UHGV virus genome: UHGV-0197549
Length of the DNA stretch: 64,000 nucleotides
From: a virus
Strand: one strand, 5' to 3'
In this document: positions 7,348 to 54,741 of the stretch, piece after piece
Position numbering within the stretch: position 1 is the first letter of the stretch
Layout of the letters: the number at the start of each line of letters is the position of its first letter
Notes under the pieces: generated by a model
The model's input: the letters and a program-made list of their open reading frames with translations, nothing else
Told to the model about the DNA's origin: nothing
Databases searched by the model: none
Made by a program: the position numbers and the translations under genes

Positions 7348-7426
7348 GAAAACAGAAAATAAACTCTTTGTGCCTAATACTCCTATACTTGGAAAAAGCC
7401 TAACTAAACCGACCTTAACCTGAACT

Positions 7427-8665
7427 ATGAATATCAACGACCTTCAACTTGTTACCGGAGAAGCCAGGCCCGGCGAGGCGGCATCCATCCGGTTCTTCGG
7501 CAAGGTGACCGCCCAGTCCACGGCGCGGTTCAATGAAGAGTTCGAGTACCTCGAAACGGTCATCCGCCCGTCGCTTATCAGAGTGCTGATTAACAGCGAG
7601 GGCGGCTCCGTTTTGCACGGCATGACAACTTACGCGACCATCCAGAACTCCACCATAGACACCGAGTGTGTCATCGAGGGCATGGCGGCGAGCATGGGCT
7701 CGGTACTCTGGGCAGCCGGAAAACGCTCCCTGATGCGCGACTACTCCATCCTGATGATACACAATCCCTTCTTGCCGTCAGCGGAAGAAGGGGAAGCCTC
7801 GGAGCTTGTCAAAGCGTTCACCCGGCAGATTGAAACGATTTACCGCAAACGTTTTTCCCTGACTGCCGAACAAGTGCAAAGTATCATGGCGGGGGAAACC
7901 GGGAAGGACGGTACCTACTTTGATGCATCACTGGCAGTCAGTGCCGGTATCATACCGGAAAAGAACATCCTGCACACCAGCCCCCAACTCTGTGAGATGG
8001 TAAAGAACAGCATTTCGGGACTGGAAGATGCAGGCGATATACAGAATGTAATGAGCAAAATAACCGCAGAAGCCGGTAACCATCCTACTCCTGCACAACA
8101 GAACATTAACCTGAATACTATGAACGAAGAAAGAACCATTCCTTTTGAACTGGGTGCGGTGGCGGCAAGCCTGGGCATCAAGGACAAATTCGAGGTAACG
8201 GATGTCATGTCGCGTATCTCCGCGCTGATGAACGTGGAGGCGTCCCTTACCGAAGCCAACCGTAAACTGACGGACGCGCAGACAGTGATTGCCGGCAAGG
8301 ACGCCAGCATCGGCAACCTGCAAAAAGACCTGGCCGAGACGGTAGCCAAACTGAGCGTATTTGAAAAGAAAGAGGCCGATGAAAAGAAAGCGCGTATCGA
8401 CAAGCTTGTCGAAGATGCCGTCACAGCGGGCAAGATTGAAAAAGAGAACAAGGAGCAATGGGTGGAAATGGCGGGCTCCAATTACGAACTGGCCGAAAAG
8501 ACACTGGCATCCATCCCCGCCCGTGAGAAGATCACCCATGAGATTGCCACCGACCCGGACAATGTGCAGGCAGCCAGGACGGCAGCCAGGACGGCAGAAG
8601 AGAAGATGGCGGAAAAAGTGAACGCCGTTGTCGGTGAGAGCTTCGAGTTCAAGAAGATGTCCTGA
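7427..8665 (+). CDS. prohead protease (ClpP/S14 family) fused to coiled-coil scaffolding domain
   Basis: 412 aa; INSEGGSVLHGMTTYATIQN ... EGMAASMGSVLWAAG ... MIHNP = ClpP Ser/His motifs; C-terminal 200 aa charged/coiled-coil (scaffold-like). Confidence 0.8.
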   Translation: MNINDLQLVTGEARPGEAASIRFFGKVTAQSTARFNEEFEYLETVIRPSLIRVLINSEGGSVLHGMTTYATIQNSTIDTECVIEGMAASMGSVLWAAGKRSLMRDYSILMIHNPFLPSAEEGEASELVKAFTRQIETIYRKRFSLTAEQVQSIMAGETGKDGTYFDASLAVSAGIIPEKNILHTSPQLCEMVKNSISGLEDAGDIQNVMSKITAEAGNHPTPAQQNINLNTMNEERTIPFELGAVAASLGIKDKFEVTDVMSRISALMNVEASLTEANRKLTDAQTVIAGKDASIGNLQKDLAETVAKLSVFEKKEADEKKARIDKLVEDAVTAGKIEKENKEQWVEMAGSNYELAEKTLASIPAREKITHEIATDPDNVQAARTAARTAEEKMAEKVNAVVGESFEFKKMS

Positions 8666-8680
8666 CAACCCATTATCCCA

Positions 8681-8699
8681 TTAACCTAAACCTTAAAAC
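8681..8699 (+). promoter_or_regulatory. upstream motif instance TTAACCTAAACCTTAAAAC
   Basis: member of recurrent AACCTWAAACC family 8-27 nt before ATG of late genes (see findings). Confidence 0.3.
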
Positions 8700-8707
8700 T
8701 ATAAAAC

Positions 8708-9772
8708 ATGGCAGAAGCAGCTAATACGGTTTCCTTTCTCCAGAACGGCTATAACGGTGAAGTCCTTGAAGACTTGCTCACTTATACCGCGCAGGGAAAC
8801 GACACCTTTAAAGAAGGACTGATTCATATTAAGTCAGGCATCCAGCACAAATACACCTTGCCGGCCATCCGTCTGGGCGATATCATCCAGGACAACGTTC
8901 CCACCCCCACCAGCAGCCACGGTGCCAAAGGCGAAAACGGAGAAAACGAGTACGAATTTACAGAGCGCTACCTGATTCCGCAGGATTTCATGGTGTACCT
9001 CGAATTTAACCCCCGCGACTACGAGAAGTATTGGAAATTCGCACAACCCGAAGGCAACCTCGTCTTCCGTGAGCTCGACCCGAAGATTCAGGCCACGATG
9101 TTGCGTTTGCTAATGGACAAGAAAAATGAGTATATCGGCAATGCTATCTGGACCAGCGCCAAGGGAGGTTCAGCGGCAGCGGGGATTACATGTCCGGCAG
9201 ATTCCATCATCATCGGCAGGAACAAGGAGAAGTACTTTGACGGAGTGGTCAAGCGCATCATCGACAACATCAACGCCACTGACAGGGAAACCATCGCGGG
9301 TGGTCAGTGTGTGCTTGCAGGCAATACCGAACTTCCGGACGGGGCAGCCGTGGAAAAGGCACTTTACGGTATGTGGAAGAAATGTCCCAAGCAAATCCGC
9401 AAGAAAGCCGGACTTACATTCGTAATGAATTTCGAGCAGTGGGACGCATACGACCAGTATGTCAGTGACAAGATGGTGAAGTACTCCGAAAATACGGAAA
9501 TCAACCGCTACCGCTTCAAAGGAAAACGCATCCTTCCGCTGGTAGGCATCCCCGAGCATACGATTGTCCTAGGTGAATTTACCACCGGCATGGACTCTAA
9601 CCTCTGGATGGGCGTGGATTACGCAAACGACACGGAAGTGCTGAAAGTGGACCGCCTGCAAAGCAACTCGGAGCTGTTCTTCTTCCAGATGCGTATGAAA
9701 ATGGACGTGAATATCGTCCGTCCCGCTGAAATCGTGGTACACACCGCTTACAAGAAGGCACCCACCACCTGA
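8708..9772 (+). CDS. major capsid protein (putative)
   Basis: 354 aa directly after protease-scaffold gene; followed by strong terminator. Confidence 0.6.
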   Translation: MAEAANTVSFLQNGYNGEVLEDLLTYTAQGNDTFKEGLIHIKSGIQHKYTLPAIRLGDIIQDNVPTPTSSHGAKGENGENEYEFTERYLIPQDFMVYLEFNPRDYEKYWKFAQPEGNLVFRELDPKIQATMLRLLMDKKNEYIGNAIWTSAKGGSAAAGITCPADSIIIGRNKEKYFDGVVKRIIDNINATDRETIAGGQCVLAGNTELPDGAAVEKALYGMWKKCPKQIRKKAGLTFVMNFEQWDAYDQYVSDKMVKYSENTEINRYRFKGKRILPLVGIPEHTIVLGEFTTGMDSNLWMGVDYANDTEVLKVDRLQSNSELFFFQMRMKMDVNIVRPAEIVVHTAYKKAPTT

Positions 9773-9795
9773 CAACCTTACTCTTAACTCTATGG

Positions 9796-9829
9796 CAGGG
9801 GAATAGGAATGACCTGTTCCCCTTTTTTA
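9796..9829 (+). terminator. rho-independent terminator after capsid gene
   Basis: AGGGGAA (9797-9803) / TTCCCCT (9817-9823) perfect 7-bp stem, 13-nt loop, then TTTTTT. Confidence 0.6.
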
Positions 9830-9830
9830 A

Positions 9831-9847
9831 AACCTTAAACCTTACCC
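9831..9847 (+). promoter_or_regulatory. upstream motif instance AACCTTAAACCTTACCC
   Basis: recurrent motif immediately upstream of ATG 9848. Confidence 0.3.
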
Positions 9848-10123
9848 TTGACTATGGCAAAACAAATCAAAACGGAAGGAGAACTTACCGCCGTACAGGA
9901 GCCGGAAGTAACCACTGCTGAAACCAAGACGGAAACCGTAACTAAAAACGAACCCAAAACCGAACCCAAACCGGAGGCATACGTACTTTCCGTATTGCAG
10001 GCGTTTCCGAATTATGAGCAACTGTATGTAGACAAACAGGGCGGCGTCTATGCCCCGGACACACCGAAGCACCTGCGCGAAATGGCCACCCTCTACAAGA
10101 ATCCTTATTTCATCCAACCTTAA
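9848..10123 (+). CDS. small hypothetical virion protein
   Basis: 91 aa, Thr/Glu/Pro-rich N-terminus; between capsid and sheath genes. Confidence 0.4.
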   Translation: MTMAKQIKTEGELTAVQEPEVTTAETKTETVTKNEPKTEPKPEAYVLSVLQAFPNYEQLYVDKQGGVYAPDTPKHLREMATLYKNPYFIQP

Positions 10124-10133
10124 CCCTTAAATC
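10115..10133 (+). promoter_or_regulatory. upstream motif instance CAACCTTAACCCTTAAATC
   Basis: recurrent motif upstream of ATG 10143. Confidence 0.3.
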
Positions 10134-10142
10134 TGAACATCC

Positions 10143-11483
10143 ATGTTAGGAAACGTATATATCAAGGACACGGACGGCAATATCTCTTACACGGGGGCAA
10201 CCGGCAACGAGAAAGTTACAGGGTTGCTGTTTGACGTGTCCCTGCAACCGGAACTCTTTACTGCCGGTTACGGGAAAAATAACGAGAACAATGTCAAACT
10301 CAACGACGTGCTTTATGTCACTAACCGTAAATCCGCCATCAAGGACTTCGGTATAATCCAGCGAGTGAAGGCCACCGAAGACGAAGAGAACAACGTGAAC
10401 TTCTTCCACGGCATCCCGTACTACCATATCTCCGAGTTCTTCCGCTTGTCCGGCAACATCGACGGCAACGGCAGGCTGTACGTGATGTTCGCCGACTGTT
10501 CAGCCGGCTGGGATGCGGTGGATATCATGCAGCGTGCGGCAGGCGGTACTATCAACCAGCTTGGCATCTGGACGGAACAGCCGCAATGGAAGCTTAACGG
10601 CGCCGAGGAAAAGTACAACCTGAACCTCGTCAAAGGTATCAATGACAAGGTGGTGGCTTTGGCAGAGCAGAACCAGCCGCTTTCCGTCATCCTGGCAGCC
10701 AACTGTTCCAACACCGGAGCCGATACGGCGGAAGGCCTGAAAGTGGACCTGAATAAAATCCCGACCGCTATCTGTGAATCCAGCCGTACATCGGTCGTTT
10801 TCGGGCAGGCACATTCGGAACTCGTGTCCACCATGCAGAAATACAATAAGAACCATACGCCCGTAGGAGTTCTCGGCGCGGCACTCGGCTGCCTGGCACG
10901 CGCCAACGTACATGAGTCAATCGCCTGGGTGAAGCAGTTCAACCTCTTTAGTGACGACTTCCAGGCCATTGAGCTGGGCTTCGGTGACATCAACCAGACG
11001 GCGCAGGAAGAGTTCATCAGTACGAACCTGTATGAATCACTGTCCCCCACACTGCTGGATGACCTGGACGAGAAAGGATACATCTTCCCGATCAAGTATG
11101 CCGGGCTGGAGAACGGGATTTACCTCTCCAAAGACCAGACCTGTTCCACGGGTGATTACCGGACGATTGCCCGGAACCGTACCATCAACAAGTCCCGCCG
11201 TGCCGTCCGTGCCGCCCTGCTGCCTTATGTGAACGCTCCCCTGATGGTGAATCCCGCTACCGGCTTGCTTGCACCTTCCAAGATTACCGCCTTCAGGACA
11301 TTGATTTCCGACGTGCTTGCCAAGATGCAGACCTCACAGGAGATTTCCGGCTATGCGGTAACGATTGACGCCAACCAGAACGTACTTCTCAATGACACGT
11401 TGCGTATTGGATATGTGCTGGTCCCCGTGGGCGTAGCTACTAAAATCTATGTGGAAGAAGGCTTGTCCCTGACGACGAAATAA
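10143..11483 (+). CDS. putative tail sheath protein
   Basis: 446 aa followed by ~147-aa tube-sized gene, then chaperone with G/GT frameshift and tape measure: contractile-tail gene order; no sequence motif confirmed. Confidence 0.4.
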   Translation: MLGNVYIKDTDGNISYTGATGNEKVTGLLFDVSLQPELFTAGYGKNNENNVKLNDVLYVTNRKSAIKDFGIIQRVKATEDEENNVNFFHGIPYYHISEFFRLSGNIDGNGRLYVMFADCSAGWDAVDIMQRAAGGTINQLGIWTEQPQWKLNGAEEKYNLNLVKGINDKVVALAEQNQPLSVILAANCSNTGADTAEGLKVDLNKIPTAICESSRTSVVFGQAHSELVSTMQKYNKNHTPVGVLGAALGCLARANVHESIAWVKQFNLFSDDFQAIELGFGDINQTAQEEFISTNLYESLSPTLLDDLDEKGYIFPIKYAGLENGIYLSKDQTCSTGDYRTIARNRTINKSRRAVRAALLPYVNAPLMVNPATGLLAPSKITAFRTLISDVLAKMQTSQEISGYAVTIDANQNVLLNDTLRIGYVLVPVGVATKIYVEEGLSLTTK

Positions 11484-11505
11484 CCTAACCTGAAAAACAA
11501 ATACT

Positions 11506-11949: not shown

Positions 11950-11963
11950 AGTCCCTTTAATTC

Positions 11964-12800: not shown

Positions 12801-12857
12801 ATTATTTATGATATATATTTTTACAAATGTAAATATATACCATTTTTATTAGAACAG

Positions 12858-14117: not shown

Positions 14118-14120
14118 ATT

Positions 14121-14573: not shown

Positions 14574-14827
14574 CTGAAAGTGTTTTCGAAGATAACAATC
14601 CGGATTGAAATTTGATTCATGCTTAGGTATTATTGTGCTTCATTTACGAAATATTGATAAACGTTTCCTTCCAACTCTTAAAGGATTATCTGCATACACT
14701 AATACATTCGGGTATGAACTTACCAACAACCGCATCGGGAAGGAATCGAAAGTCCGATTCAACCTTTTCTGATTTGTTCCCCTATACTTGGAAAAGAACA
14801 TTAACCAATCTACAACCAACTTTTATT

Positions 14828-15369: not shown

Positions 15370-15428
15370 CCGGCTTTTCATTCTTTATTACTTTCATTCA
15401 TTTTTCATTCTTTCATTTCCTTTGTTTT

Positions 15429-15466
15429 CCCCTGCCGCCACACAAGCGGCAGGGTTTTTCTTTTTT
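15429..15466 (+). terminator. rho-independent terminator between chaperone and tape-measure genes
   Basis: CCCTGCCGC / GCGGCAGGG 9-bp perfect stem (15429-15454) followed by TTTTTCTTTTTT. Confidence 0.6.
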
Positions 15467-15523
15467 AATCATACGCTCTCCTTTTCACCTATTCTTACCC
15501 GAACCTAACCTTGCATCCGTATT

Positions 15524-19351: not shown

Positions 19352-19381
19352 TTATTCATATATCAAAAAAACTAACTAATA

Positions 19382-22581: not shown

Positions 22582-24218
22582 CAGAACTCTTACCCGGCAT
22601 CAGGGAACTGGACAAGGACAGCCTTTGTCACGCCATCTATTCCCAGCTTTACCATAACTTTTTCAATGCACAGGATGCCGGAACCGTCACCGAAGGCGAC
22701 CAGACTTCCATTCGCTTGCGCAATACGGCTTATAACTTTGCCAGTGCCATCGCTTCGGGCGTCACCGGTGAAGGCGGTGGTGAGAGTGGCGGTGTCCTTT
22801 TGGCTTTCCTGAAGAAAAGCGGTGGCGATATGAGCGGGTTGTTACGTGCGGGCAACGGTTTTGAAGCTGGCATAGCCAATGAACGCATCCTACATATATA
22901 TAAGGTAGGACAAGAACGGGGCGTTGCCGTTTCCGGCAACCTGAAAATCGGTGGGAATCTGTACCTGAACGGTAAACAGGTGCTCTCTTATGATTCCGGT
23001 ACCCATACCGCAACATTGGAAAGCACACGGGTTGATTTCGGAAGCTCCCTTCTCAGGGGAGCCGGTGAGCTTCTTATCGGAGAGGATAAGGAGACGGGCA
23101 TCTACATGACACCGGCACTGTTGCAGGTAGGTGGCAGGAATGTGTATCATGCGGGCAATGCCAACCGGACGGACATTTCATGGAGTATGCTGGACGCCTC
23201 TGTTTCGGGAAAACTTCAGGTAACGGGTACTGCGGACATACAAGGCGTCCTGACAGCGGAACAGGGGGTCAATCTGGGCGCAGCCGGTAAGACGGTACTT
23301 TCCATCCATTCCGATACGGCTGACCTTAGCGGCTATCTTTCCTTTTCCCAAGGGCATGGCATCAAAATCGGCGGTTCTCCCGTCCTTATCCGGCTGGATG
23401 ACAAGGATATCCAGCTTGCGGCAGCGGGTGGAGACTTACTTTTGGGTAATGAATCCACTAATAAAATCCGTTTGCAATCGGACTTATGGGATATTGACGG
23501 AGATACGATGCTAATCAGCAAGTACGGCTCTGCCTGTTTTCCCGGTTCACTTACCGTCAGGCATAATTACGGGGATAATCTGCTCACATCCTATCACAAG
23601 GATAAACAGGATGAAGGGATTGTCATTCATAAACGGTTGCGCTGGGGAAACTCTTCGGGTGCTTACCTGTATGGCAAAGACGATGCGCTTCATTTCGCTT
23701 CAAGGGTTTACCGCACGGACAGCGCGAACGGCCAGACGAGCCCTTACCCTTATGAGACTGCCTTCTCGTTTGTCCCTTCCACCAGCCTTTACAAACGGCA
23801 GGACCGGCACTCCGACACTTTTTGTCTCCATACGGACGCTGATTTCTTCGGTTTTAATAAACCGCTCGAAGCATCCGGACATATCGGCATTGACGGTTCA
23901 TTCACCCGGCTGGCGGACAAGACGCTATTCTTCAGCGCAGAGAGTTATCTGCTTTCCGTGTCAAACGGCATCCGGCATTATGGGGATGCTTACTTCATGG
24001 GCGGTATCAGCAGTGAGTTTTTCTCTTCGGGCTTTGCGGGCTCCGGCTGGGCCATCCTGAAGAACAAGGCTACGGGCAGCATACAGGCTACCTTTGACGA
24101 GGTGGTCGTCCGCAGGAAAATGCGCGTCTATGAGCTGGAAGTCCAGAAAAACACCGCTACCAACGGCTCCCTATGGGTAACGGACAGTTGCAGCGGTGAT
24201 ATGGTCATACCACTTTAA
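22578..24218 (+). CDS. tail/baseplate protein (hypothetical)
   Basis: 546 aa; ATGA overlap with upstream gene. Confidence 0.45.
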   Translation: MTELLPGIRELDKDSLCHAIYSQLYHNFFNAQDAGTVTEGDQTSIRLRNTAYNFASAIASGVTGEGGGESGGVLLAFLKKSGGDMSGLLRAGNGFEAGIANERILHIYKVGQERGVAVSGNLKIGGNLYLNGKQVLSYDSGTHTATLESTRVDFGSSLLRGAGELLIGEDKETGIYMTPALLQVGGRNVYHAGNANRTDISWSMLDASVSGKLQVTGTADIQGVLTAEQGVNLGAAGKTVLSIHSDTADLSGYLSFSQGHGIKIGGSPVLIRLDDKDIQLAAAGGDLLLGNESTNKIRLQSDLWDIDGDTMLISKYGSACFPGSLTVRHNYGDNLLTSYHKDKQDEGIVIHKRLRWGNSSGAYLYGKDDALHFASRVYRTDSANGQTSPYPYETAFSFVPSTSLYKRQDRHSDTFCLHTDADFFGFNKPLEASGHIGIDGSFTRLADKTLFFSAESYLLSVSNGIRHYGDAYFMGGISSEFFSSGFAGSGWAILKNKATGSIQATFDEVVVRRKMRVYELEVQKNTATNGSLWVTDSCSGDMVIPL

Positions 24219-24231
24219 TTTAACCTTAAAC
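24218..24231 (+). promoter_or_regulatory. upstream motif instance TTTAACCTTAAAC
   Basis: recurrent motif immediately upstream of ATG 24233. Confidence 0.3.
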
Positions 24232-24232
24232 G

Positions 24233-27876: not shown

Positions 27877-27900
27877 CGTTTATTCCCTATTCTACCTTAG

Positions 27901-27913
27901 ACTAAACCTTAAC
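27901..27913 (+). promoter_or_regulatory. upstream motif instance CTAAACCTTAACC
   Basis: recurrent motif immediately upstream of ATG 27916. Confidence 0.3.
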
Positions 27914-27915
27914 CA

Positions 27916-32920: not shown

Positions 32921-33232
32921 ATGGAAAATGGCTTATCTATGGAAATAAAAAACATCGTTGTAACCAAAAGCATGACGGCCCTGACAGCCAACGCTTACTA
33001 CCAGTTGGAAACGAGCGCGTCCAACGGAATCCTGAACCGTATCTCCGCCAATGTGCTGACTCCCGCATCCGCCCAGGGACAGGAAGAGTATCTGGGCAAT
33101 ATCAGTTATGAGAACCATAACCTCTCCTGTAGCTTCCTCTCGGTGGAGGACGTATCGGCGTACTTCAAGGACTTTGAAGGGTTCATGGCGGAGATCGGAG
33201 CACAGCAGGAACAGGAAAAGCAAAGCAAGTGA
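32921..33232 (+). CDS. small hypothetical protein
   Basis: ~103 aa from ATG 32921 (MENGLSMEIKNIVVTKSMTALTANAYYQLE...); the longer ORF-track ORF 32420..33232 overlaps the fibre gene and is unsupported upstream. Confidence 0.3.
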   Translation: MENGLSMEIKNIVVTKSMTALTANAYYQLETSASNGILNRISANVLTPASAQGQEEYLGNISYENHNLSCSFLSVEDVSAYFKDFEGFMAEIGAQQEQEKQSK

Positions 33233-33295
33233 CAACATCTCCGGCTTACTTTCCCTATTCCTTGAGAAACAACTTAAAGAACAACAATCAAATTT

Positions 33296-36201: not shown

Positions 36202-36755
36202 AAGAGAACCGTTATAAACTACCGACCGACAAGCTGGTGAACAGGCTGGTGCCTTATTACCTCTCAGGCAGGAAATACATTCTTTTCCTGCAAAGCCTGG
36301 TGTATCCCCTGCACTCCCTGAGTGAGAAATTCCGTGCCTTTGCGGCAGAGAAACACATCGAAGCACGCATGACCTCACAGGTGATGTACTTCGAGTGGCA
36401 CCTGAACCATAAGTTCGCCCGGTATCTGAAAAACAGCGGAGAAAGGCTCGTGATTTCACAGAGCGACTCACTGGGAGTGGACATCTACCGCGAAGATGCC
36501 GCATACGGCAAGCCCTTTACTATTTGGTACAACCTCGAAGAAGTGACGCCGGACGTGAAGCCCGAAGAGAAGCCCCGCGAGTTTCACTTCCTGGCGGAAG
36601 AGAAGGCGATCAACCGGGTCAGCTTCATGGTGCTCGTCCCTGAAATAAACATCCCTGAGAAAGAGTTCGTCTATATGCTCTCCTTTGTTATCAACACCTA
36701 TAAAGTGGCAGGCAAGACCTACCTGATAAAAATAGACCAAACTGAAAACACCTAA
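36198..36755 (+). CDS. hypothetical tail protein
   Basis: 185 aa; ATGA overlap. Confidence 0.4.
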   Translation: MKENRYKLPTDKLVNRLVPYYLSGRKYILFLQSLVYPLHSLSEKFRAFAAEKHIEARMTSQVMYFEWHLNHKFARYLKNSGERLVISQSDSLGVDIYREDAAYGKPFTIWYNLEEVTPDVKPEEKPREFHFLAEEKAINRVSFMVLVPEINIPEKEFVYMLSFVINTYKVAGKTYLIKIDQTENT

Positions 36756-36772
36756 CCAATTAACCTGATACT

Positions 36773-41536: not shown

Positions 41537-42592
41537 ATGAATCAACATCAACCCTGTATGTTGTTGCTCAACGACATACATATATCCAAAGACAACATCC
41601 CCGATTTTTCCCTGAACTGGAACGAAGCGCTATCACACTGCAAGCGTCTGGACATCCATACCATCGTACTGGGCGGAGACTTGTTCTTTTCACGCTCATC
41701 ACAGACGCTGGATGTGCTACTGGCTGTACATGATGCCTTATTAGCTGCCCGGAACATGAACATAGATGTCATTCTTGCCAATGGCAACCATGATTTAGTG
41801 AACCAGGAAGCCATACGCGGTTACTGCCATGTCTACGACCAACACGACAATGTGCTGGTGATTGACGAATACCATACCCTTTCCAACCCGGAGTGGAGTT
41901 TCATGCTCCATGTCATACCGTACTTTCCGGAAGACGGAAGCTTCACAGAGAAGCTGGATGAAGTCATTCAAAATGAGGTAAGCACCGGCAAGCTTAACTA
42001 CCTCTATATCCATGAAGGCGTCAATGGCGCACTTTCCCGTCCCGCTGAAAATGAACTGCCGGCAAATATCTTCGGTGACTTCGACAAGGTATTTGCAGGC
42101 CATTACCACAACCGTTGCACCGTGGCTCCCAATATCGAGTATATCGGCTCGGCGCGCCAGCATAACTTCGGTGAAGACGAGGAAAAAGGCTATACCGTCC
42201 TTTATGCCGACGGTACGACCGAATTTATAAAGAACCGTGCCAACAAGCGCTATATGGTGCTCGATGTCCCGGATGACAAGGTGGACATTCACCTGACCGA
42301 CCATCTGGAGGAACTCAGGGAAGACGGCAGGTACAAGGTAAAGGTACGTGTCCACTCGTCCCTCGCCGGTGCAGCCGCCATTGACAAGGATAAATTACTG
42401 GAAGCCGGAGCGGGCAAGGTGGAAGTCGTTGTCGCGGAACTGCAAGCCGTCCGGTCTGCCGATGCGGGAGTACTGGAGAAGTTTGACGGCGGAAAGATAC
42501 GCGATAACTACCGCCAATTCTGCACGGAGAAAGGAATCAGTGATTGCCTGGGATTGTCTTACCTTAAACCGGACGCGTCATGTGGAAACTAA
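41537..42592 (+). CDS. sbcD: SbcD/Mre11-family nuclease (calcineurin-like phosphoesterase)
   Basis: 351 aa; LLNDIH (DxH), VLGGDLF (GD), LANGNHD (GNHD), FAGHYH (GH.H) metallophosphatase motifs in Mre11 order. Confidence 0.75.
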   Translation: MNQHQPCMLLLNDIHISKDNIPDFSLNWNEALSHCKRLDIHTIVLGGDLFFSRSSQTLDVLLAVHDALLAARNMNIDVILANGNHDLVNQEAIRGYCHVYDQHDNVLVIDEYHTLSNPEWSFMLHVIPYFPEDGSFTEKLDEVIQNEVSTGKLNYLYIHEGVNGALSRPAENELPANIFGDFDKVFAGHYHNRCTVAPNIEYIGSARQHNFGEDEEKGYTVLYADGTTEFIKNRANKRYMVLDVPDDKVDIHLTDHLEELREDGRYKVKVRVHSSLAGAAAIDKDKLLEAGAGKVEVVVAELQAVRSADAGVLEKFDGGKIRDNYRQFCTEKGISDCLGLSYLKPDASCGN

Positions 42593-44913
42593 ATAAGATC
42601 ACCGCAGAGAATATCTGCTCGTTCAGCAACCTGCATTACGTACTGGACCAAGGCGTTACTACATTAGTATTCGGGCACAATCTGGACAATGACAGCCAGG
42701 GCTCCAACGGTTCGGGCAAGTCCGCATTGATAGAGTGCATCGCTACCGGCATCACGGGCAGCCCGTTGCGCAAGGTCAAGAATGAGGAAATTATCAATGA
42801 TGCCGCCGATGAGTGCAGCATTCAACTGGAGTTCTTCAATGACACTTCGGATGAGGTCTTTACCATTTTGCGACGCATCCTGCGTAAATGCGGTTCCACG
42901 GTAGAGTGCCGGATTGAACGTGAAGGCAAGGCTGTGACAACCGATGAAGCGGTATGTCCCGGTATAGATGCCTATAACAAGTATATCCTTGAGAAGTTGG
43001 GCATTACCAAAGACGAACTCTATAATAACTATCTTCTTTCCAGACATAAATACCAGGACTTCCTTTCTTCTTCCGACAAGGACAAGAAGGAAATCATCAA
43101 CCGCTTTTCCAATGCCAGCCTTGTGGATATAGCCATGGAGAAGGTACTGGAAGACAAGAAGCCGGTGGATGAAGCGTTGCGCAAGGCGGAACTGGAAGTT
43201 GCCGGGCTGGACGGGCGCATTGAAATGCTGGCTGAACAGATTCTCAAAGAAGAGGATTCGGCTCAGGAAAAAGCACGCACGAAAGCCCAAAGGCTGGCGG
43301 ATATGGAAAAGAGCATCGCCGGGAAGCGTTCCCTGATACGGGACTGCAACGAAGAGTTGGAAATCCTGAAAGCTTCCTATCAGGGGATTGAAAAAGCGGA
43401 CAAACAGATGCAGGAACTGGAAAACGGCGAATCCTCCATCGGGGAGTGCCTGAAAGAAGTCACCGCCCTGCTCTCTCCCCTGCAATGCGGTTCATTATCG
43501 GACTGGAACGGGATAATAACGGACAAGAAAGGCAGGATTGAAAAACTGAACGGGGAGCTTTCCGTTTGGGACACGGCTTTGGAGGAAGCGGAAAAGAAAC
43601 TGCAAGAGGTAACACGGATGCGCAGCTCCCTGCTGGAAGAATACCGTGTCTTCTTTGAAAACTTTAAAGTAAAATCGGACGGATACGATGCAGAACTGGA
43701 GCGCATGGATAAGGATATAACAGCTCTTACCGGCCGTATCACTGAACTGGGCAAGCAAAGGGCTACTCTTACATCCGCTATTGAGAACCTGAAGAACAAG
43801 CTGGCGGGGACAATCGTTTGCCCGGCCTGCCGCCACCCATTCATTTTATCAGATGAAAACTTCGATGTACAGGCTGCCCGTAAACAGGTGGAAGACAACG
43901 AGACGGAAAAGGGAAAACTGGACAACCTGCTGACGGATTGCCGCAAACAATCGGAAAGCATTGAAGAATCGGAGAAGGATATACGTACAAGCAAGCGTGC
44001 CCTTGCCGGACAGAATACCGCCTGGGAGGAAAAGCTCCGGCAATCGGAAAAGTCCGGACGGGAAGCCTTGGGGATGCAGGAAGACGCCAGCCAGGGCAAG
44101 GAACGGATTCTCCGTTCGATAAACGCCATGCAAACCGAACTGGACGGCATCCGCCGCAAGCTTTTTGACGAGGCGTTCTCATTCCTGGACGACGCTTACA
44201 GAAACGTCAAGCGGGAGAGCGACAACCGGAAGGAAGACATCAAAGCGGCGGAGAGCGCCATTCTGGTGCTGGAAAATACGATAAAGGAATTGAAGGAGTC
44301 TTCGGACGGCGATATTCTCGTCTCCCTGAAAGCCTCGCTCAAAGAGTACCGGAAGCGGTCATCGGCAGCGGTTGCCGCATTGGACAAGCTGGAGAAACAG
44401 TCCGGAGAACTGATGCGCCAGGCGGAAGTCTTTTCACAGTTCAAGTCCTACCTTGCCAATAGCAAGATCGCGGCGCTGGCACAAGTTACGAACGAGTTCT
44501 TAGAGAGCATCGGCAGCGACATCCGCCTGCAACTCTCCGGCTTTACCACCCTGAAATCGGGAAAGGTACGCGAGAAAATATCGGTCAGCCTGTTGCGCTC
44601 CGGCATGGACTGCGGCTCTTTCGACAAGTTCTCCGAGGGGGAAAAGTGCCGGGTGAACCTCGCCACGATCCTTGCCATGCAGAAACTGGTGAACGGGAAC
44701 TGCGAGGGGGACAAAGGGCTGGGCCTGATCGTACTGGATGAAATATTATCTCCGGTGGATGAGGACGGGCTGGCAAGCATGTTCGGAGCCCTGAACAAGT
44801 CCGGCATCACCGCACTGGTCGTATCGCACGGGAACATCAGCGAAAGCTACCCTTACAAGCTCATTATCAACAAACAGGATGGCAAATCCTATATCAATCA
44901 CCCAAACCAATAA
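42580..44913 (+). CDS. sbcC: SbcC/Rad50-family ATPase
   Basis: 777 aa; Walker A GSNGSGKSALIE at N-term, long coiled coil with central CPAC zinc-hook, C-terminal LIVLDEILSPVDEDG (Walker B/D-loop). Confidence 0.8.
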   Translation: MWKLNKITAENICSFSNLHYVLDQGVTTLVFGHNLDNDSQGSNGSGKSALIECIATGITGSPLRKVKNEEIINDAADECSIQLEFFNDTSDEVFTILRRILRKCGSTVECRIEREGKAVTTDEAVCPGIDAYNKYILEKLGITKDELYNNYLLSRHKYQDFLSSSDKDKKEIINRFSNASLVDIAMEKVLEDKKPVDEALRKAELEVAGLDGRIEMLAEQILKEEDSAQEKARTKAQRLADMEKSIAGKRSLIRDCNEELEILKASYQGIEKADKQMQELENGESSIGECLKEVTALLSPLQCGSLSDWNGIITDKKGRIEKLNGELSVWDTALEEAEKKLQEVTRMRSSLLEEYRVFFENFKVKSDGYDAELERMDKDITALTGRITELGKQRATLTSAIENLKNKLAGTIVCPACRHPFILSDENFDVQAARKQVEDNETEKGKLDNLLTDCRKQSESIEESEKDIRTSKRALAGQNTAWEEKLRQSEKSGREALGMQEDASQGKERILRSINAMQTELDGIRRKLFDEAFSFLDDAYRNVKRESDNRKEDIKAAESAILVLENTIKELKESSDGDILVSLKASLKEYRKRSSAAVAALDKLEKQSGELMRQAEVFSQFKSYLANSKIAALAQVTNEFLESIGSDIRLQLSGFTTLKSGKVREKISVSLLRSGMDCGSFDKFSEGEKCRVNLATILAMQKLVNGNCEGDKGLGLIVLDEILSPVDEDGLASMFGALNKSGITALVVSHGNISESYPYKLIINKQDGKSYINHPNQ

Positions 44914-44918
44914 CCACT

Positions 44919-45407
44919 ATGAAAAAAGAAAAACCAAAAGCCGAAGAACTCAGGCGGGAGCATATACTGGCTCTCGACGTGGCTACCCTTTGCGGCTATT
45001 ACAGCGTGCATGAATCCGGCACGTGGAACTTCACCGAAGGCAAGCACCGAAACGACAACAAGCAACACCTCGCACTGAAGAACACGCTGACGGACTTTAT
45101 CGTCAAATACGGCATCCGCCGGATTGTGACCGAGAACGTGTCGGTAAACAAGCACTTCTTCGACATGCGCAAGCTATCGGAGTTCCGGGGCGTATTGCTC
45201 TGCGTCTGTGACGAGCTGGATCTGCCCGAACCGGAGTTCATCAACCCGAAGGCGCTCAAGAAGTTCGCCACGGGCAACGGGAATGCCGGGAAACAGGAGA
45301 TGGTGCAGGCTTACGTGCAGCGTTTTGGTCGGCAACCGCTGGATGACAACGAGGCGGACGCCGCCTGGCTATACCACTATTACATCAGCAAATACCGTAT
45401 CAACTAA
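44919..45407 (+). CDS. RuvC-like Holliday junction resolvase
   Basis: 162 aa; ILALDVATLCGYY (RuvC first acidic motif) ... DEADAAWLYHYY C-terminal motif. Confidence 0.6.
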   Translation: MKKEKPKAEELRREHILALDVATLCGYYSVHESGTWNFTEGKHRNDNKQHLALKNTLTDFIVKYGIRRIVTENVSVNKHFFDMRKLSEFRGVLLCVCDELDLPEPEFINPKALKKFATGNGNAGKQEMVQAYVQRFGRQPLDDNEADAAWLYHYYISKYRIN

Positions 45408-45490
45408 ACCTTGGACATCTATGCAGAACAACCTTTATTTCAATGAATTGACAGCTACAGATTATATTCTGAAACTTAGCGGCTGTCACG

Positions 45491-46090
45491 ATGGGGAAGG
45501 CAAATAGCTCGCCTTACCTGACGGATGAAGAGTCCGTACGCACCCGCACGGCCCTGTTCCATAAATACGTTTACCCGTACCGGAACCTGATCTACCACAT
45601 CTGTATCAGGCAGACCCGTGACAAGGAGAATATCGACGACAACTACAACGAAGTGCTGATAAACTTCTTCAAATATGTCAGCTCTTATGACCCCCGGCGG
45701 GAAATAAAGACGTGGCTTTACGCGATTACCGTCAGGATGCTGGCGGACCTGGAACGGAAGAACAACCGGTTCACCCGCGAAGGGGACGTGGGGGCGATGA
45801 GGATGGAACAGCTTCCCGATACACCCTGTACGGAAAGCATAACGCTCGAAAACTACCGGGACATGCTCGGCGATGAAGTGCTGGGAGCCCTGAAAGAAAT
45901 CGGACCCCTGTACAGCGAGGCGCTCCTGTTGCAAGTGGAAGGATACAAGCTGGAAGAGATAACGGACATACTCTACCGGAGGGGATGTCTCAGGACAAGG
46001 AGTGTTGAAACGACCAAAAGCAGGATTTTCCTGGCAAAGAAGAAACTTAGAGAAAGGCTTACAAGAGATGGAAAACGAAAAGAAAACTAA
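45491..46090 (+). CDS. ECF-type sigma-70 family RNA polymerase sigma factor
   Basis: 199 aa; region-2-like EIKTWLYAITVRMLADLERK and region-4 HTH LYSEALLLQVEGYKLEEITDIL...TTKSRIFLAKKKLRERL. Confidence 0.65.
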   Translation: MGKANSSPYLTDEESVRTRTALFHKYVYPYRNLIYHICIRQTRDKENIDDNYNEVLINFFKYVSSYDPRREIKTWLYAITVRMLADLERKNNRFTREGDVGAMRMEQLPDTPCTESITLENYRDMLGDEVLGALKEIGPLYSEALLLQVEGYKLEEITDILYRRGCLRTRSVETTKSRIFLAKKKLRERLTRDGKRKEN

Positions 46091-48028: not shown

Positions 48029-48035
48029 AACGAAT

Positions 48036-50794: not shown

Positions 50795-53012
50795 GAGTGT
50801 GGAATTTAAACAGACACAGATACCGGTTCAGGCTTTGGATTGCCTGACCGGTAACGGGTTCAGACAAGGAGACGGCGGAAGTCTACCGGATATTGATACC
50901 GACTTCGCTTCGAACAGGCGTCAGGAAGTAAAGGAATACCTGGAGCGTCGTTATAATATGAACGGAAAACAGCGTGTCTTCTCTGCCGGGACTTACTCGA
51001 CAATGAAACTGAAAGCTGCAATAAAAGACGTGTGCAGGGTATATAAAGTCCCTGTCAGTTATGTGAATTATATTACCGCCATTTTCGAGGATGACAACAT
51101 GAGTTGGACAGACCTGTTCATGTTTGCGACAACCAATAAGAAAGTAAACAAGTTCGTACAGGATTACCCGCAGGTGATTGAGGACATACGGGGACTGATG
51201 GGGCAACCGCGTTCGGCTTCCGTACATGCTTCGGCAATCATTGTTACACCGAACTCAAAGGACGGTGAGGATATGGAGTGCTTCGATTTTACTCCCATCA
51301 AGAAGGTGGACGATATTCTGGTATCGGAACTGGACGGGTATTCCATTGATGAAACGGGATTGTTGAAGAATGACTGTTTGGGCATCAAGGAACTTGCCAA
51401 GATACAGTCGGTCATAGATGAAAGTAACCGTGTGTATAATGCAGGCATCTCTTTTGAAGGGCTCGTCCGCAGCGGACTGGATGATGAGAAAACCTACCGG
51501 ATACTCGCCAAAGGGTACACCCAGAACGTTTTCCAGTTCAGCTCCGCAGGAATGACCAAGTTCCTGATGGATATGCAACCGGACTGCATCAATGATTTGA
51601 TTGCCGCCAATGCCTTGTATCGTCCGGCTACACTGGAATCGGGTTCTACTCAAAAGTATTTGGATTGTAAAAGAGGTGAAGTGGCTCCCGTATATCTGTG
51701 GGGAACTTATAATGCGCTAAAAGGTACGTACGGGCAATTAACATATCAGGAAGACCTGGCGCAAATGGCGAGGGAAATAGGTGGCTTTTCATTGGGAGAA
51801 GGTGTAAATCTCGTTAAGTATATATCAAAAAAGAAAGTCGAAAAAATTCATGCAATGAGGGATAAGTTTATGTCGGGAGCTCACGAAAAGGGATGCCCGA
51901 AAGAAGACGCAGACCTCATTTGGGATATGATTGAGGCGGGCGGTTCCTATATTTTTAACAAATCGCACGCAACGGCTTATGCCATCACATCGTATGTAGG
52001 TGCCTGGCTGAAAGCCAATTACCCGACTGCCTTCTACACCATCGCCCTGCAATGGGCGGATGACAAGGAACTCCCGCTTATCATGTCGGAAATGGAAGAA
52101 TGCAGTTCTGCCAAGGTGGTGCCGCCCGATATTAACACCTCAGCCGAAAAGTTCTTCACGGATTACCGGACGAATGAAATCTTCTGGTCGCTGGGTAAGA
52201 TAAAGATACTGGGAACCAAAGCGGTGCAATACATCATTGACGAGCGCACCAAAGGCGGTCCGTTTAAATCAATCGAGAACTTTATACACCGTATATTCAA
52301 ATACAAGCTGAAAAAGTACGAATACTGGGATGATGCGGATAATGAGCAGGAGGCCGTTAGGGTTCCCGTCAATGCACGTCACGTAAAGAACCTGATTCTT
52401 GCCGGTTGCTTCGATAAGGTAAGCAATATCAGTGCCGTTGTGGAAAGGTATTCGATACTGGATAAGGCGGCTACGGAACTGGGATTCAAGATTCCCACCG
52501 GTGACTATCCCGACCACCTGATTAACCAGCATTACTTCTGGAGTATGCAGCAGATCGAGGTCTGTGGCATCGGGCGGATTGACTACAAGCGGATATATGA
52601 TAACTCCTATTGCCGCCACCAGTTCAAAGGGCGGGCATCCTATTCTACCGTACATAACGCGCTCCTGTCCGGAAGCGAAGGAAAGAAGGTCGCCCTTTGC
52701 GCGACTGTTACGGAAATGGAGGAAATCTCCTACAAGGACAAAAAGACGGGAGAAAGGAAGCACCTCTGCAAACTGCATCTCCAACAGAACAACGACCTGA
52801 TAAAGCTCGTATGCTGGAATGACTTCTACATAGAGAATAAAACGGAACTCCAGGATATAAAAGGTAAGATTGTCATCGTATCGGCAATCGTCAAGTACAA
52901 TGACTACAGCGGAGGCAACAGCCTGAATACCTACAAGACTTCCCGGCTATTCACACTTAACCAATCATCAGAAAATCAAATAAACCAAGAAGATGGCAGC
53001 ACCAAAAAATGA
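50730..53012 (+). CDS. dnaE: DNA polymerase III alpha (DnaE) C-terminal part
   Basis: 760 aa in +1 frame; LPDIDTDFASNRRQEVKEYLERRY continues the DnaE motif (..PDIDTDF...); frame closed upstream by TGA 50718-50720. Confidence 0.8.
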   Translation: MTSSLITGIWYGHLMRRFMVVKSVEFKQTQIPVQALDCLTGNGFRQGDGGSLPDIDTDFASNRRQEVKEYLERRYNMNGKQRVFSAGTYSTMKLKAAIKDVCRVYKVPVSYVNYITAIFEDDNMSWTDLFMFATTNKKVNKFVQDYPQVIEDIRGLMGQPRSASVHASAIIVTPNSKDGEDMECFDFTPIKKVDDILVSELDGYSIDETGLLKNDCLGIKELAKIQSVIDESNRVYNAGISFEGLVRSGLDDEKTYRILAKGYTQNVFQFSSAGMTKFLMDMQPDCINDLIAANALYRPATLESGSTQKYLDCKRGEVAPVYLWGTYNALKGTYGQLTYQEDLAQMAREIGGFSLGEGVNLVKYISKKKVEKIHAMRDKFMSGAHEKGCPKEDADLIWDMIEAGGSYIFNKSHATAYAITSYVGAWLKANYPTAFYTIALQWADDKELPLIMSEMEECSSAKVVPPDINTSAEKFFTDYRTNEIFWSLGKIKILGTKAVQYIIDERTKGGPFKSIENFIHRIFKYKLKKYEYWDDADNEQEAVRVPVNARHVKNLILAGCFDKVSNISAVVERYSILDKAATELGFKIPTGDYPDHLINQHYFWSMQQIEVCGIGRIDYKRIYDNSYCRHQFKGRASYSTVHNALLSGSEGKKVALCATVTEMEEISYKDKKTGERKHLCKLHLQQNNDLIKLVCWNDFYIENKTELQDIKGKIVIVSAIVKYNDYSGGNSLNTYKTSRLFTLNQSSENQINQEDGSTKK

Positions 53013-53763: not shown

Positions 53764-53766
53764 GCG

Positions 53767-54024
53767 ATGGAAGAGGAAGAAAAGACGGTTTCATTCAAGC
53801 CGTCGGAAAAAATGTTGTATGGCGTGCTGAATTATGACGGCAACGAACTGATGGCGACCATATCGGGGTATGACCTCTCTATCTCATTCAATATGAGGGT
53901 TATAAACTCTCTATCGGATGCAGAAAGTTGTGCAGACGCTTTGGCGAATGTCTTTTATGAAGCACTAATGGAACAATTAGCTGAAAAAAAATCTGCAATT
54001 TTTCAACCTAAACAGAACCAATGA
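53767..54024 (+). CDS. hypothetical protein
   Basis: 85 aa. Confidence 0.35.
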   Translation: MEEEEKTVSFKPSEKMLYGVLNYDGNELMATISGYDLSISFNMRVINSLSDAESCADALANVFYEALMEQLAEKKSAIFQPKQNQ

Positions 54025-54088
54025 CCCCTATACCTTGATAAAGCACCGAAGTTCGGACTTATGCGCCGGACTTCTTACTCGAAACATA

Positions 54089-54592
54089 ATGGAAAAAGAA
54101 ACTAAAAAACTACCACTGACTGCACAGGAAGAACAGCTTTGCCAGCTTTTCATAAACGGGGGCATGAAGTTCGCCGGAAAACGCACTCCCTGTTACCGGG
54201 AAGTCTTCAAGGATGAATCGCCCAAAGCGTACGCAGCAGCATACAAGGTGTTTGCCCGCCCGCAGGTAATGGCACGCATCAAGGAGCTGGTGCAGGAAGT
54301 GGACAATGAAACAGAAACGCTTGCCATGAAGCTCCAGATTACCGAGACACTGAAAGCGGTGATGGAAGAAACGGCAGACGCTTCGTATACGGACAAGTTC
54401 GGAATCAAACTCTCACCGGCTCCTTTACGGGCGGTATCCGTCAATGCGGCAAGAACACTGATGGATATTTATCCGGTCAGGCACTCCGCTGATTCAAAAG
54501 GTAAGAATGAGGTGAGCAGCGGAGTGACGTTCAATGTCATCGTTCCGGTGCCGGTACAAATAACAAAGGAGGAAGACGGAGATGAAACTTGA
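54089..54592 (+). CDS. terS: terminase small subunit (tentative)
   Basis: ~167 aa from ATG 54089; LTAQEEQLCQLFINGG...AAAYKVFARPQVMARIKEL fits the LT.KQE.FC.EY ... A..LL....V.A.I.EL pattern of Terminase_2-type small subunits. Confidence 0.45.
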   Translation: MEKETKKLPLTAQEEQLCQLFINGGMKFAGKRTPCYREVFKDESPKAYAAAYKVFARPQVMARIKELVQEVDNETETLAMKLQITETLKAVMEETADASYTDKFGIKLSPAPLRAVSVNAARTLMDIYPVRHSADSKGKNEVSSGVTFNVIVPVPVQITKEEDGDET

Positions 54593-54734
54593 CCGTAGAA
54601 AAGTACAATGGACGGTCTATCTGATTCTGCTGATCGGGCTTGTTATCTATGGCTTGCGGGATTCGGAGGGGGCGGAAAGGCTTATCCGAGCCATCACAGA
54701 CGCATTTGCTATTTTATTCAATAACTCAACCTAA
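54582..54734 (+). CDS. small single-TM protein (holin candidate), not in ORF track
   Basis: 50 aa MKLDRRKVQWTVYLILLIGLVIYGLRDSEGAERLIRAITDAFAILFNNST; ATGA overlap with terS-like gene; immediately upstream of lysis genes. Confidence 0.3.
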   Translation: MKLDRRKVQWTVYLILLIGLVIYGLRDSEGAERLIRAITDAFAILFNNST

Positions 54735-54741
54735 CCTAAAC
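54727..54741 (+). promoter_or_regulatory. upstream motif instance CAACCTAACCTAAAC
   Basis: recurrent motif immediately upstream of ATG 54744. Confidence 0.3.

Follow-up and report, generated by a model that had tools for sequence, protein, structure and literature searches.

What does a short sequence do that recurs in front of the start codons of a gut phage? The question is raised by the virus genome UHGV-0197549, of which a stretch of 64,000 nucleotides (nt), here called the window, was analysed. Upstream of many of its genes lies a motif made of 2-3 tandem T(W)AACC units at a variable distance from the ATG, the AACC motif in what follows. An earlier note on this DNA had proposed either a late-promoter element, read by an extracytoplasmic function (ECF)-type sigma factor that the phage itself encodes, or a translation-initiation enhancer. 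The evidence below makes it probable, with good confidence, that the motif is an RNA element of leaders and start regions rather than a promoter. As far as the sequences go, its reverse complement is found in FopS, a small RNA (sRNA) family of the Bacteroidaceae, as the single-stranded 5' seed, and we see an even chance that the AACC start regions are translation start regions responsive to FopS.

All 13 instances of the motif listed in the earlier note were found at their coordinates. In upstream windows spanning -30..-1 (n=50), AACCT is present in 15, against 2.2 expected, while ACCTAA and TAACCT reach 8 (0.31 expected) and 9 (0.49 expected). Within 30 nt upstream of 43 plus-strand starts there are 19 AACCT-type words. 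Shuffling each upstream region separately gave 2.5 (mononucleotide) or 6.5 (dinucleotide), and none of 2000 shuffles reached the observed 19, so the motif is enriched over shuffled controls. It is also strongly oriented: AACCTWA is found 17 times on the plus strand and 3 times on the minus strand, ACCT(W)AAC 13 times and not at all, respectively. Unbiased motif discovery by expectation maximisation in the 43 upstream regions recovers AA[CT][CT]TAA[AC]C. Hits to the position weight matrix (PWM) of at least 10 bits number 21 on the plus and four on the minus strand, and 17 of the 21 end 1-17 nt before a start codon.

The motif lies 1-28 nt upstream of ATGs, before first as well as internal genes. 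At six junctions the TAA within it doubles as the stop codon of the preceding gene and, at the sheath junction, AACCTTAA encodes (Q/K)-P-stop. The earlier note had assigned it to late and structural genes. It does precede virion genes, but is found also before the replication genes SbcC (42580), RuvC (44919) and exonuclease (52993), and is therefore not specific to late genes. A position after an intrinsic terminator was claimed for several instances; a strong terminator precedes only 9831 and 15498, and at 15498 a promoter-like element lies in between. The weaker copy at 45402 is present but precedes a conserved open reading frame (ORF) of 28 codons, 45421-45507, and not the sigma ORF itself. 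This small ORF overlaps the start of the sigma gene by 17 nt and is kept in relatives with 57-100% identity. Since the sigma ORF itself lacks the motif, the two may be translationally coupled, or the 28-codon ORF may encode a leader peptide.

The sites are given below with ddG, in kcal/mol, defined as the cofold energy of full-length FopS and the start region (-40 to +20) minus both self-folds.

3903..3918, plus strand: predicted leader of the portal gene, AAATAACTCTAAATCT, with an 8-nt contiguous FopS complement, TAAATCTA; ddG -19.3; promoter-like element 3891 upstream
7401..7426, plus strand: AACC-type leader of the protease/scaffold gene (7427); ddG -19.7, duplex over the ATG; promoter-like element 7383 upstream
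8681..8707, plus strand: AACC-type leader of the major capsid gene (8708) in a 42-nt internal junction; PWM 12.3 bits; 9-nt complement, AACCTTAAA; ddG -14.0
9829..9853, plus strand: AACC-type leader of gene 9854, immediately behind the terminator of the capsid gene; 9-nt complement; ddG -18.0
10115..10142, plus strand: AACC-type leader of the sheath gene (10143), formed on its 5' side by the last codons and stop of the upstream ORF; 10-nt complement, CCTTAAATCT; ddG -15.0
11481..11505, plus strand: AACC-type leader of the tube gene (11506) in a 22-nt junction, its TAA being the sheath stop; PWM 12.1 bits; ddG -16.6
14794..14827, plus strand: predicted leader of gene 14828, TTAACCAATCTACAACC; ddG -17.3; downstream of the top-scoring promoter-like element, 14782
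15498..15523, plus strand: AACC-type leader of the tape-measure gene (15524); ddG -17.7; promoter-like element 15489 between the terminator at 15430-15454 and the motif
24216..24232, plus strand: AACC motif of tail-fibre gene 24233, filling the 14-nt junction; 11-nt contiguous complement of the FopS seed, TTAACCTTAAA; PWM 12.0 bits
26492..26512, plus strand: AACC motif of tail gene 26513 in an 18-nt junction; PWM 12.3 bits; ddG -13.2
27901..27915, plus strand: AACC-type leader of the 1655-aa tail gene (27916); 8-nt complement; ddG -13.2; CCCTATTCTA 14 nt upstream
36749..36772, plus strand: AACC-type leader of tail-fibre gene 36773; 11-nt complement, ATACTATGAAA, plus TTAACCT; ddG -20.2
42560..42579, plus strand: weaker copy before SbcC (42580), inside the 3' end of the upstream ORF; PWM 11.7 bits; kept in relatives
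44901..44918, plus strand: copy before the RuvC-like gene (44919); 11-nt complement, ACTATGAAAAA; stronger in relatives (AACCTAAACCAATAAC)
45402..45420, plus strand: copy before the 28-codon ORF 45421-45507
54727..54743, plus strand: AACC motif of gene 54744 (DUF7365 in Pfam), beside the lysozyme gene; PWM 12.3 bits; ddG -13.7
60229..60251, plus strand: AACC-type leader of gene 60252 (DUF5675); PWM 10.4 bits; ddG -16.0; promoter-like element 60217

Two further start regions, those of genes 21688 and 53767, have ddG values of -16.8 and -15.1.

Complementarity to the FopS seed

Genomes of Bacteroidaceae are reported to carry 12-15 copies of FopS, an sRNA that bile salts induce and that is related to GibS (PMC11697453). 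Through a single-stranded seed it pairs with the start regions of the first genes of polysaccharide utilization locus (PUL) operons and blocks their translation; for susC BT_3983 this repression is documented by electrophoretic mobility shift assays, in-line probing, compensatory mutations and in vitro translation (PMC11697453). The protein RbpB counteracts FopS repression and binds the susC BT_3983 5' untranslated region (UTR) independently of FopS (PMC11697453). The consensus 5' seed is GTGTTTTTCATAGTATTAGATTTAAGGTTAACAAA (PMC11697453), and an identical 5' end is found in a FopS gene (Rfam RF04319) among the loci collected here (L128). Its reverse complement, TTTGTTAACCTTAAATCTAATACTATGAAAAACAC, contains both the motif family TTAACCTTAAATCTAA and the ACT-ATG-AAA context frequent in the phage, and FopS is therefore predicted to pair across motif and start codon. 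Plus-strand starts often have the ACT-ATG context (at -3, A is 0.56; at -2, C is 0.47; at -1, T is 0.40), which also lies within the FopS-complementary sequence (CUAAUACUAUGAAAAA).

Contiguous complements to the seed of at least 8, 9 and 10 bases occur in 15, 10 and 6 of the 43 window start regions, positioned between -31 and +8 of the start. Composition-matched shuffled seeds gave 2.06, 0.57 and 0.14, and none of 1000 reached the observed counts. In a second control, real start regions served as pseudo-targets, 353 in all, drawn from host-like genes and from two other phages, Hankyphage and BS-TP1. The latter, an isolate, is a temperate Bacteroides phage and a distant member of the family, with 54% capsid identity. 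The maxima for the pseudo-targets were 11, 4 and 3, none reaching the counts for FopS, and the match therefore exceeds a general likeness to start regions. The fractions of start regions with complements of at least 8 and at least 10 nt tell a similar story, being 0.35 and 0.14 in the window and 0.30-0.42 and 0.10-0.15 in close relatives, against 0.11 and 0.01 in host-like genes, 0.04 and 0 in other family clades, 0 and 0 in BS-TP1 and 0.12 and 0 in Hankyphage.

Predicted energies follow the same division. A ddG of -14 or lower is seen for 26% of window start regions and 39% of those in close relatives, but for 0-3% in all control sets. By the same metric the validated target susC BT_3983 has a value of -14.7, which 11 phage start regions equal or surpass (-15.0 or lower); predicted FopS binding of such strength is confined to phage lineages found in Bacteroides. 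The top-ranked B. thetaiotaomicron candidates lie at -17 to -21. The predicted duplexes span the start codon in the top-ranked start regions. The best predicted FopS site of the whole window is the leader of gene 36773, whose RNAduplex energy of -25.2 is the window minimum.

The motif is conserved in close relatives, being kept at orthologous junctions in the closest clade. There, the fraction of junctions with a PWM score of at least 9 bits is 0.94 for capsid, 0.88 for sheath, 0.78 for gene 9854, 0.71 for tape measure and 0.69 for tube. The other clades have 0.23 for capsid, 0.11 for sheath, 0 for tape measure and 0.02 for tube, with no orthologues of gene 9854 detected, and their junctions are shorter and A-rich. 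Within the closest clade, leader sequence and unit number turn over and the motif type stays. The tube-leader block TAACCTAACCTGAAAA, for example, is kept in subclade A and absent in other clades, whose junctions measure 10-14 nt, and the sister subclade has the motif only at capsid and sheath. A second motif-bearing lineage comprises prophages of B. oleiciplenus and B. thetaiotaomicron. Every named host of a motif-bearing locus is a Bacteroides.

A phage-encoded partner was also sought. The window held neither a complementary cluster suggestive of an antisense or FopS-like RNA nor a seed match within 3 mismatches. With Rfam at gathering thresholds, a group I intron was the sole match in the window, and 7 related loci had none. 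An exact 14-mer scan of viral contigs gave only scattered, uninformative matches. No host susC start regions were present in the loci searched, where the only perfect matches were FopS genes themselves. A literature search for FopS or GibS together with phage gave nothing relevant among its top matches. The paper describing FopS notes a BLAST match to a Caudovirales phage and proposes phage-mediated spread of the sRNA (PMC11697453); the match may be to an sRNA gene or to an antisense start region like those described here. The FopS gene in L128 (5689-5761, minus strand; RF04319, 83 bits) bears on that remark: it lies on a contig labelled 'viral' in IMG/VR, at the end of which stands a 16S rRNA gene (5' half, Bacteroidales), and is probably host DNA within a viral collection.

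The promoter-like element and the phage sigma factor

A separate bipartite element, TTTAAACCTTTT-N10-CCCCTA[TC]NC[TC]T-N4-AAA, marks operon starts. It stands upstream of the genes for portal, protease and tape measure and of a few more, at a distance of 20-60 nt. The element is family-wide, CTA[TC]NC[TC]T being found before these genes in every family clade, including Segatella and Muribaculaceae prophages and BS-TP1 (family loci L001-L127 and L260). Upstream of the protease gene, CTAYNCTT was seen in 13/13 representative relatives inspected. Alignment of 214 non-redundant CTA[TC]NC[TC]T instances with an ORF start after them brings out two features for which they had not been selected, a T-A-A-A/C-C box exactly 19 nt upstream (A 0.75, A 0.81, C 0.81) and, 4-6 nt downstream, a block of A. 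Of these pre-ORF sites, 62% have the AA[AC]C box; among internal matches on the plus strand the share is only 8%, and among those on the minus strand 0-16%.

A PWM for the bipartite element, trained solely on clades without the AACC motif, picks the plus-strand positions 14782, 7383, 15489, 33255, 3891, 60217 and 54028 in the window, plus one internal site. The seven non-internal picks are all 28-61 nt upstream of starts, and the best plus-strand score is 21.8, against 12.4 on the minus strand. The elements, and the terminator of the capsid gene, are as follows.

3865..3905, plus strand: bipartite element of the portal gene, with -35-like box, CTATACCT and A block; score 17.6
7358..7397, plus strand: bipartite element of the protease gene; score 20.7
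14757..14796, plus strand: bipartite element ATTCAACCTTTT-N10-CCCCTATACTTG; score 21.8, the window best
15464..15503, plus strand: bipartite element of the tape-measure gene; score 20.0
33230..33269, plus strand: bipartite element of gene 33296; score 18.8
54002..54042, plus strand: bipartite element, score 14.8, whose -35-like box is the 'orphan' AACC PWM hit at 54004 with no ATG downstream
60193..60231, plus strand: bipartite element of gene 60252; score 15.2
27887-27894 and 22569-22576: weaker bipartite copies
9797..9829, plus strand: intrinsic terminator of the capsid gene, an 11-bp stem then TTTTTT, its position kept in all clades

The ECF-type sigma gene named in the earlier note is indeed there, at 45491..46090 on the plus strand (TIGR02937, 46.7 bits with a cutoff of 42.9; Sigma70_r2, 1e-8). 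Homologues were found in both family records checked, MT835494.1 (50% identity) and BS-TP1 (35% identity, annotated as a sigma factor) and, on this sequence evidence, the gene is conserved family-wide. The natural reading is that the phage sigma factor would recognise the bipartite element. As reader of the AACC motif it is poorly placed, the sigma gene being family-wide and the motif limited to a few lineages; co-distribution of the two fails, since the sigma gene is present in MT835494.1 and BS-TP1, and BS-TP1 and most clades lack the motif.

Position argues in the same direction and lends no support to the proposal of a late promoter. The bipartite element lies upstream and the AACC motif downstream of it: at genes 7427, 15524, 27916 and 60252 the motif falls between the predicted start site and the ATG. 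Leaders from the predicted promoters are 16-34 nt long; the commonest length of Bacteroides 5' UTRs is 23 nt (PMC7366714). Elsewhere the motif is found in internal junctions of 5-42 nt, and at least seven sites are in junctions of 5-22 nt or inside the upstream ORF, with no room for a transcription start at the head of a unit. None of the AACC sites that precede an ATG reached the score of a bipartite promoter in the bipartite scan. After the capsid terminator there is no promoter-like element in any clade, and the AACC block there occupies the start region of the next gene.

Two ways of rescuing a transcriptional role were considered. A pseudo-promoter formed by the AACC box and the CTATG start context was rejected, as no such site scores in the bipartite scan, and the idea of a -35 decoy was abandoned because the -35 PWM is too uninformative (33 plus-strand vs 27 minus-strand hits). 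In the text of the Gratiaviridae proposal (PMC8008677), which describes a family of similar gene content, neither 'promoter' nor 'sigma factor' is present, and a literature search on a promoter of this family found nothing relevant. The pairing of a family-wide bipartite element with an ECF-type sigma factor would provide a concrete model of late transcription for a phage family of Bacteroidales prophages. Phage sigma factors with cognate late promoters are familiar from T4 gp55, with TATAAATA, and from the sigma factors of SPO1. Compared with these systems, the window offers an ECF-type sigma factor and the bipartite element, while the AACC motif lacks a -10 partner and promoter geometry.

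Start-region properties and the competing explanations

Translation in Bacteroidia generally starts without a Shine-Dalgarno (SD) sequence, and its determinants include upstream adenines at -3, -6, -12 and -13 (PMC6847099), while 'group B' genomes have an A-rich non-SD ribosome binding site with a TAAAAA core (PMC6028130). The phage starts fit this pattern, with A at -3 (0.56) and -12 to -15 (about 0.5), G at only 0-5% at -12 to -14, low predicted structure, and the signal near first and internal starts alike. Overall, A makes up 0.37 and G 0.13 of the upstream regions, compared with 0.28 and 0.25 in the window. That the motif is not an SD sequence, as had been stated, is borne out by duplexes with 16S 3' tails (those containing GGAACACCUCCUUUCU), which are mostly at -2 to -5 kcal/mol, with 2/14 leaders at about -10. 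Internal complementarity to 12 Bacteroidales 16S rRNAs is no better than chance, the longest shared complement of 7 nt being equalled by 55% of shuffled 16S sequences. Of known phage enhancers, the nearest in flavour is the 'epsilon' element of T7 gene 10, UUAACUUUA, for which pairing with 16S helix 17 has been proposed. The AACC motif resembles it (UUAACCUUAA) and shares its position in late-gene leaders, but lacks complementarity to the 16S rRNAs beyond chance.

Accessibility as the sole explanation of the motif was rejected. Predicted pairing probability over -30..-1 is 0.29 for motif genes and 0.54 for coding controls, but the non-motif genes, at 0.34, do not differ significantly from the motif genes and are alike unstructured; the motif is therefore not needed for accessibility. 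Nor is it a general host enhancer, given that AACCT occurs in 4.7% of 298 host-like start regions, compared with about one third of phage start regions, and is scarce in other Bacteroides phages of similar or lower G+C (Hankyphage 1/45, BS-TP1 none). The hexamers enriched in host-like starts share just the sub-words TAAC, CTAA and TAAA with the motif. From the shuffles, the unstructured non-motif genes and the rarity elsewhere it follows that composition and accessibility fail to explain the specific sequence. Of the two proposals in the earlier note, the second, a translation-initiation enhancer, is the better, in that it places the motif at the level of translation.

The explanation that we favour, at even odds, is that these are start regions responsive to FopS. 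A bolder form of it, to which we give a probability of roughly 0.4, is that a widespread lineage of temperate Bacteroides phages has wired the starts of its virion genes to the FopS of its host, which exists in many copies and responds to bile. Either FopS would set a threshold for late proteins, keeping stray prophage expression silent and tying lysis to conditions in the gut, or late mRNAs would act as a sponge for FopS and release glycan-uptake loci of the host from repression while phage is being made. FopS would be predicted to pair at about a quarter of the phage genes, among them those for portal, protease/scaffold, capsid, sheath, tube, tape measure and tail fibres. The pairing would block ribosome loading, as for susC BT_3983, and would make translation of virion genes dependent on the abundance of FopS, itself induced by bile salts and countered by RbpB. 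Such dependence may, as a threshold, guard against leaky prophage expression, or connect the phage with conditions in the gut. Late mRNAs, being abundant, might in turn titrate FopS and so de-repress PULs. The location, enrichment and conservation of the motif, its specific complementarity and energies near that of a validated target are computed results; binding in vivo, the direction of its effect and a benefit to the phage we infer.

Precedents for such an arrangement are close. The closest is FopS at susC BT_3983 and other PUL genes of Bacteroides thetaiotaomicron (PMC11697453), an sRNA to which GibS (PMC7366714) is related: the partner there is the same single-stranded 5' seed, and the site likewise lies just ahead of the start codon and over it. 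The validated susC BT_3983 site, UGUUUAAUCUUAAAUUCAAGUGU-AUG (UUUAAUCUUAAAU...AUG), is laid out as the phage leaders are, with equal or stronger predicted energies in the phage, whose sites have C where BT_3983 has U, giving G-C instead of G-U pairs. The targets differ, being virion and replication genes in the phage and PUL operons for FopS as known, and so does the density, with predicted sites at about a quarter of one genome's genes as opposed to a handful in a host genome of 4800 genes. Sponges of mRNA or other RNA that titrate sRNAs are known, among them the prophage-encoded anti-sRNAs of enterohaemorrhagic E. coli. Here likewise many abundant seed-complementary transcripts could lower the free sRNA and relieve host targets of repression, though the phage sites lie inside late-gene start regions.

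Several points weigh against FopS control. Pairing and regulation are computational predictions, and the retention of repressor sites in phage late genes would be puzzling. Contiguous matches are 8-11 nt long in the window (up to 14 nt in relatives) and A/U-rich, and those at 36773, 44919 and 7427 consist mostly of start-codon context and less of the AACC block. In several start regions the AACC-to-ATG register differs from that of the seed by 1-7 nt, therefore forcing bulges. The energies come from a cofold metric and not from IntaRNA, and the control starts from rough ORF calls. That the phage lives in Bacteroides and that its host carries FopS are both deduced, and several relatives resident in Bacteroides or Phocaeicola lack the motif. 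Finally, the seed is antisense to a sequence that itself resembles a start region, so that a common, efficient type of start could yield the match without regulation.

This last point leads to the main rival, in which the AACC motif is a lineage-specific Bacteroidia non-SD start region that promotes loading of the ribosome (through bS1) on highly expressed genes. The FopS match would then follow as a side effect, FopS having evolved to recognise starts of this kind in PUL genes; the pairing prediction would hold but would not be the reason for the motif. We regard this as less likely than control by FopS. The A-rich, G-poor upstream regions with A at -3 and -12 to -15 agree with the published adenine pattern (PMC6847099, PMC6028130), the regions are open when set against coding controls, host start hexamers share the sub-words TAAC, CTAA and TAAA, and orthologous leaders change sequence and unit number yet retain the motif type. 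The likeness to Bacteroidia non-SD starts extends to the short distance from the start, use before first and internal genes and the lack of pairing with the 16S 3' tail. What the phage has in addition is a defined, C-containing TWAACC repeat, which is confined to few phage lineages and, as seen above, rare in host-like genes, Hankyphage and BS-TP1. Against this rival, genes without the motif are almost equally unstructured, shuffles show that composition alone does not yield the words, the spacing to the ATG is not fixed, and the seed match exceeds that of 353 real start regions. A site for some other factor acting on RNA, be it processing by an endoribonuclease of host or phage, stability of mRNA 5' ends or an RNA-binding protein, phage-encoded or of the host, such as RbpB, seems improbable. 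The strand-specific recurrence of an intergenic motif in polycistronic units would suit it, as would the four transcripts at whose extreme 5' end the motif is predicted to stand and the FopS-independent binding of RbpB to the susC BT_3983 5' UTR. Against that, no RNA-binding or ribosomal protein was detected among the window ORFs, no antisense partner is encoded in the window, nothing indicates cleavage, and the specific match to the FopS seed would be left unaccounted for.

The late promoter read by the phage ECF sigma factor, giving very short leaders or none, we consider quite improbable. ECF -35 elements typically contain 'AAC', and the T(A/T)AAC(C) unit does resemble the -35-like box of the family promoter (TTAAACCTTT); within the window the -35 PWM finds its best match at 9835, just past the capsid terminator, and the most conserved part of the capsid leader is TTAACCT, 23-32 nt from the ATG. 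Yet no AACC site scores as a full bipartite promoter, the -35 PWM hits both strands about equally, many sites are in 5-22 nt junctions or inside upstream ORFs, and the sigma gene and CTAYNCTT are family-wide where the motif is not. With a -35 element only 1-28 nt away from the ATG, moreover, the start site would fall inside the gene, and other clades have no element after the capsid terminator, so that a promoter is not needed at that place. Replication genes, too, have the motif in front of them, as does the ORF that precedes the sigma gene. Least probable of all is that the repeats have no function, slippage-prone pentamers or hexamers having arisen in the intergenic DNA of one lineage and been inherited. 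Tandem units do vary in copy number among relatives and, relative to other clades, look like insertions of 10-20 nt, but the bias in strand and position is strict, orthologous junctions retain the motif while their sequence turns over, another lineage, of the B. oleiciplenus type, carries it too, and the FopS-seed match is non-random.

Post-transcriptional control in Bacteroides is barely mapped, and the known sRNA targets are metabolic genes. If FopS does act on these start regions, a host sRNA network that answers to bile and glycans would control an abundant lineage of gut phages or be manipulated by it, and phage production would be tied to gut physiology and PUL expression. The regulon of a trans-acting host sRNA would then extend into phage structural genes, in an organism without SD initiation.

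Genome context

The window holds most of the genome of a tailed phage of the contractile-tail type. Besides several tail and fibre genes, its virion genes include the following.

3919-5238: portal gene
7427-8665: protease/scaffold gene
8708-9772: capsid gene
10143-11483: sheath gene
11506-11949: tube gene
15524-19351: tape-measure gene

A replication module (SbcCD, RuvC, DnaB, primase and a split DnaE) and genes for lysozyme and the large terminase are also present. Similar gene content characterises the proposed 'Gratiaviridae' (PMC8008677). Capsid relatives are frequent among human-gut viral contigs and present as prophages across Bacteroidales. The closest named host is an uncultured Bacteroides sp. 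(L081), with 99% capsid identity, and a megablast search of phage records gave no match.

The late region is interrupted by two minus-strand islands of low GC (29-39%), 11964-14573 and 57258-60082. One encodes an 8xMP membrane protein together with UmuC-like and UmuD-like (S24 peptidase) proteins and the other gave no match in Pfam. The regions upstream of them are rich in A/T or A/G and lack the AACC motif.

Mosaicism is evident when L005, L007, L008, L010 and L011 are compared with L001-L004. The capsid N-terminus is 100% identical between these two subclades, with identities of 74-76% for portal, 60-64% for protease and 40-42% for tape measure, and the capsid gene moves along with its own AACC-type leader. 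Such a near-identical capsid gene between diverged neighbours might suggest that the motif serves as a recombination linker, an idea that was rejected: the 3' end of the protease gene is likewise conserved, so the breakpoint is not at the motif.

DnaE (Pol III alpha) is split into overlapping plus-strand ORFs, 49073-50794 with the PHP domain and the first part of the NTPase domain, and 50730-53012 with the remaining NTPase domain, finger and HHH. The split could be a frameshift, a sequencing error or programmed recoding. Between the ORF 60685-60948 and the Terminase_3 ORF 61169-62539 lies a group I intron (60909-61139, plus strand; Rfam RF00028, 86 bits, E 1.6e-20), and the large terminase gene is thus probably interrupted by a self-splicing intron.

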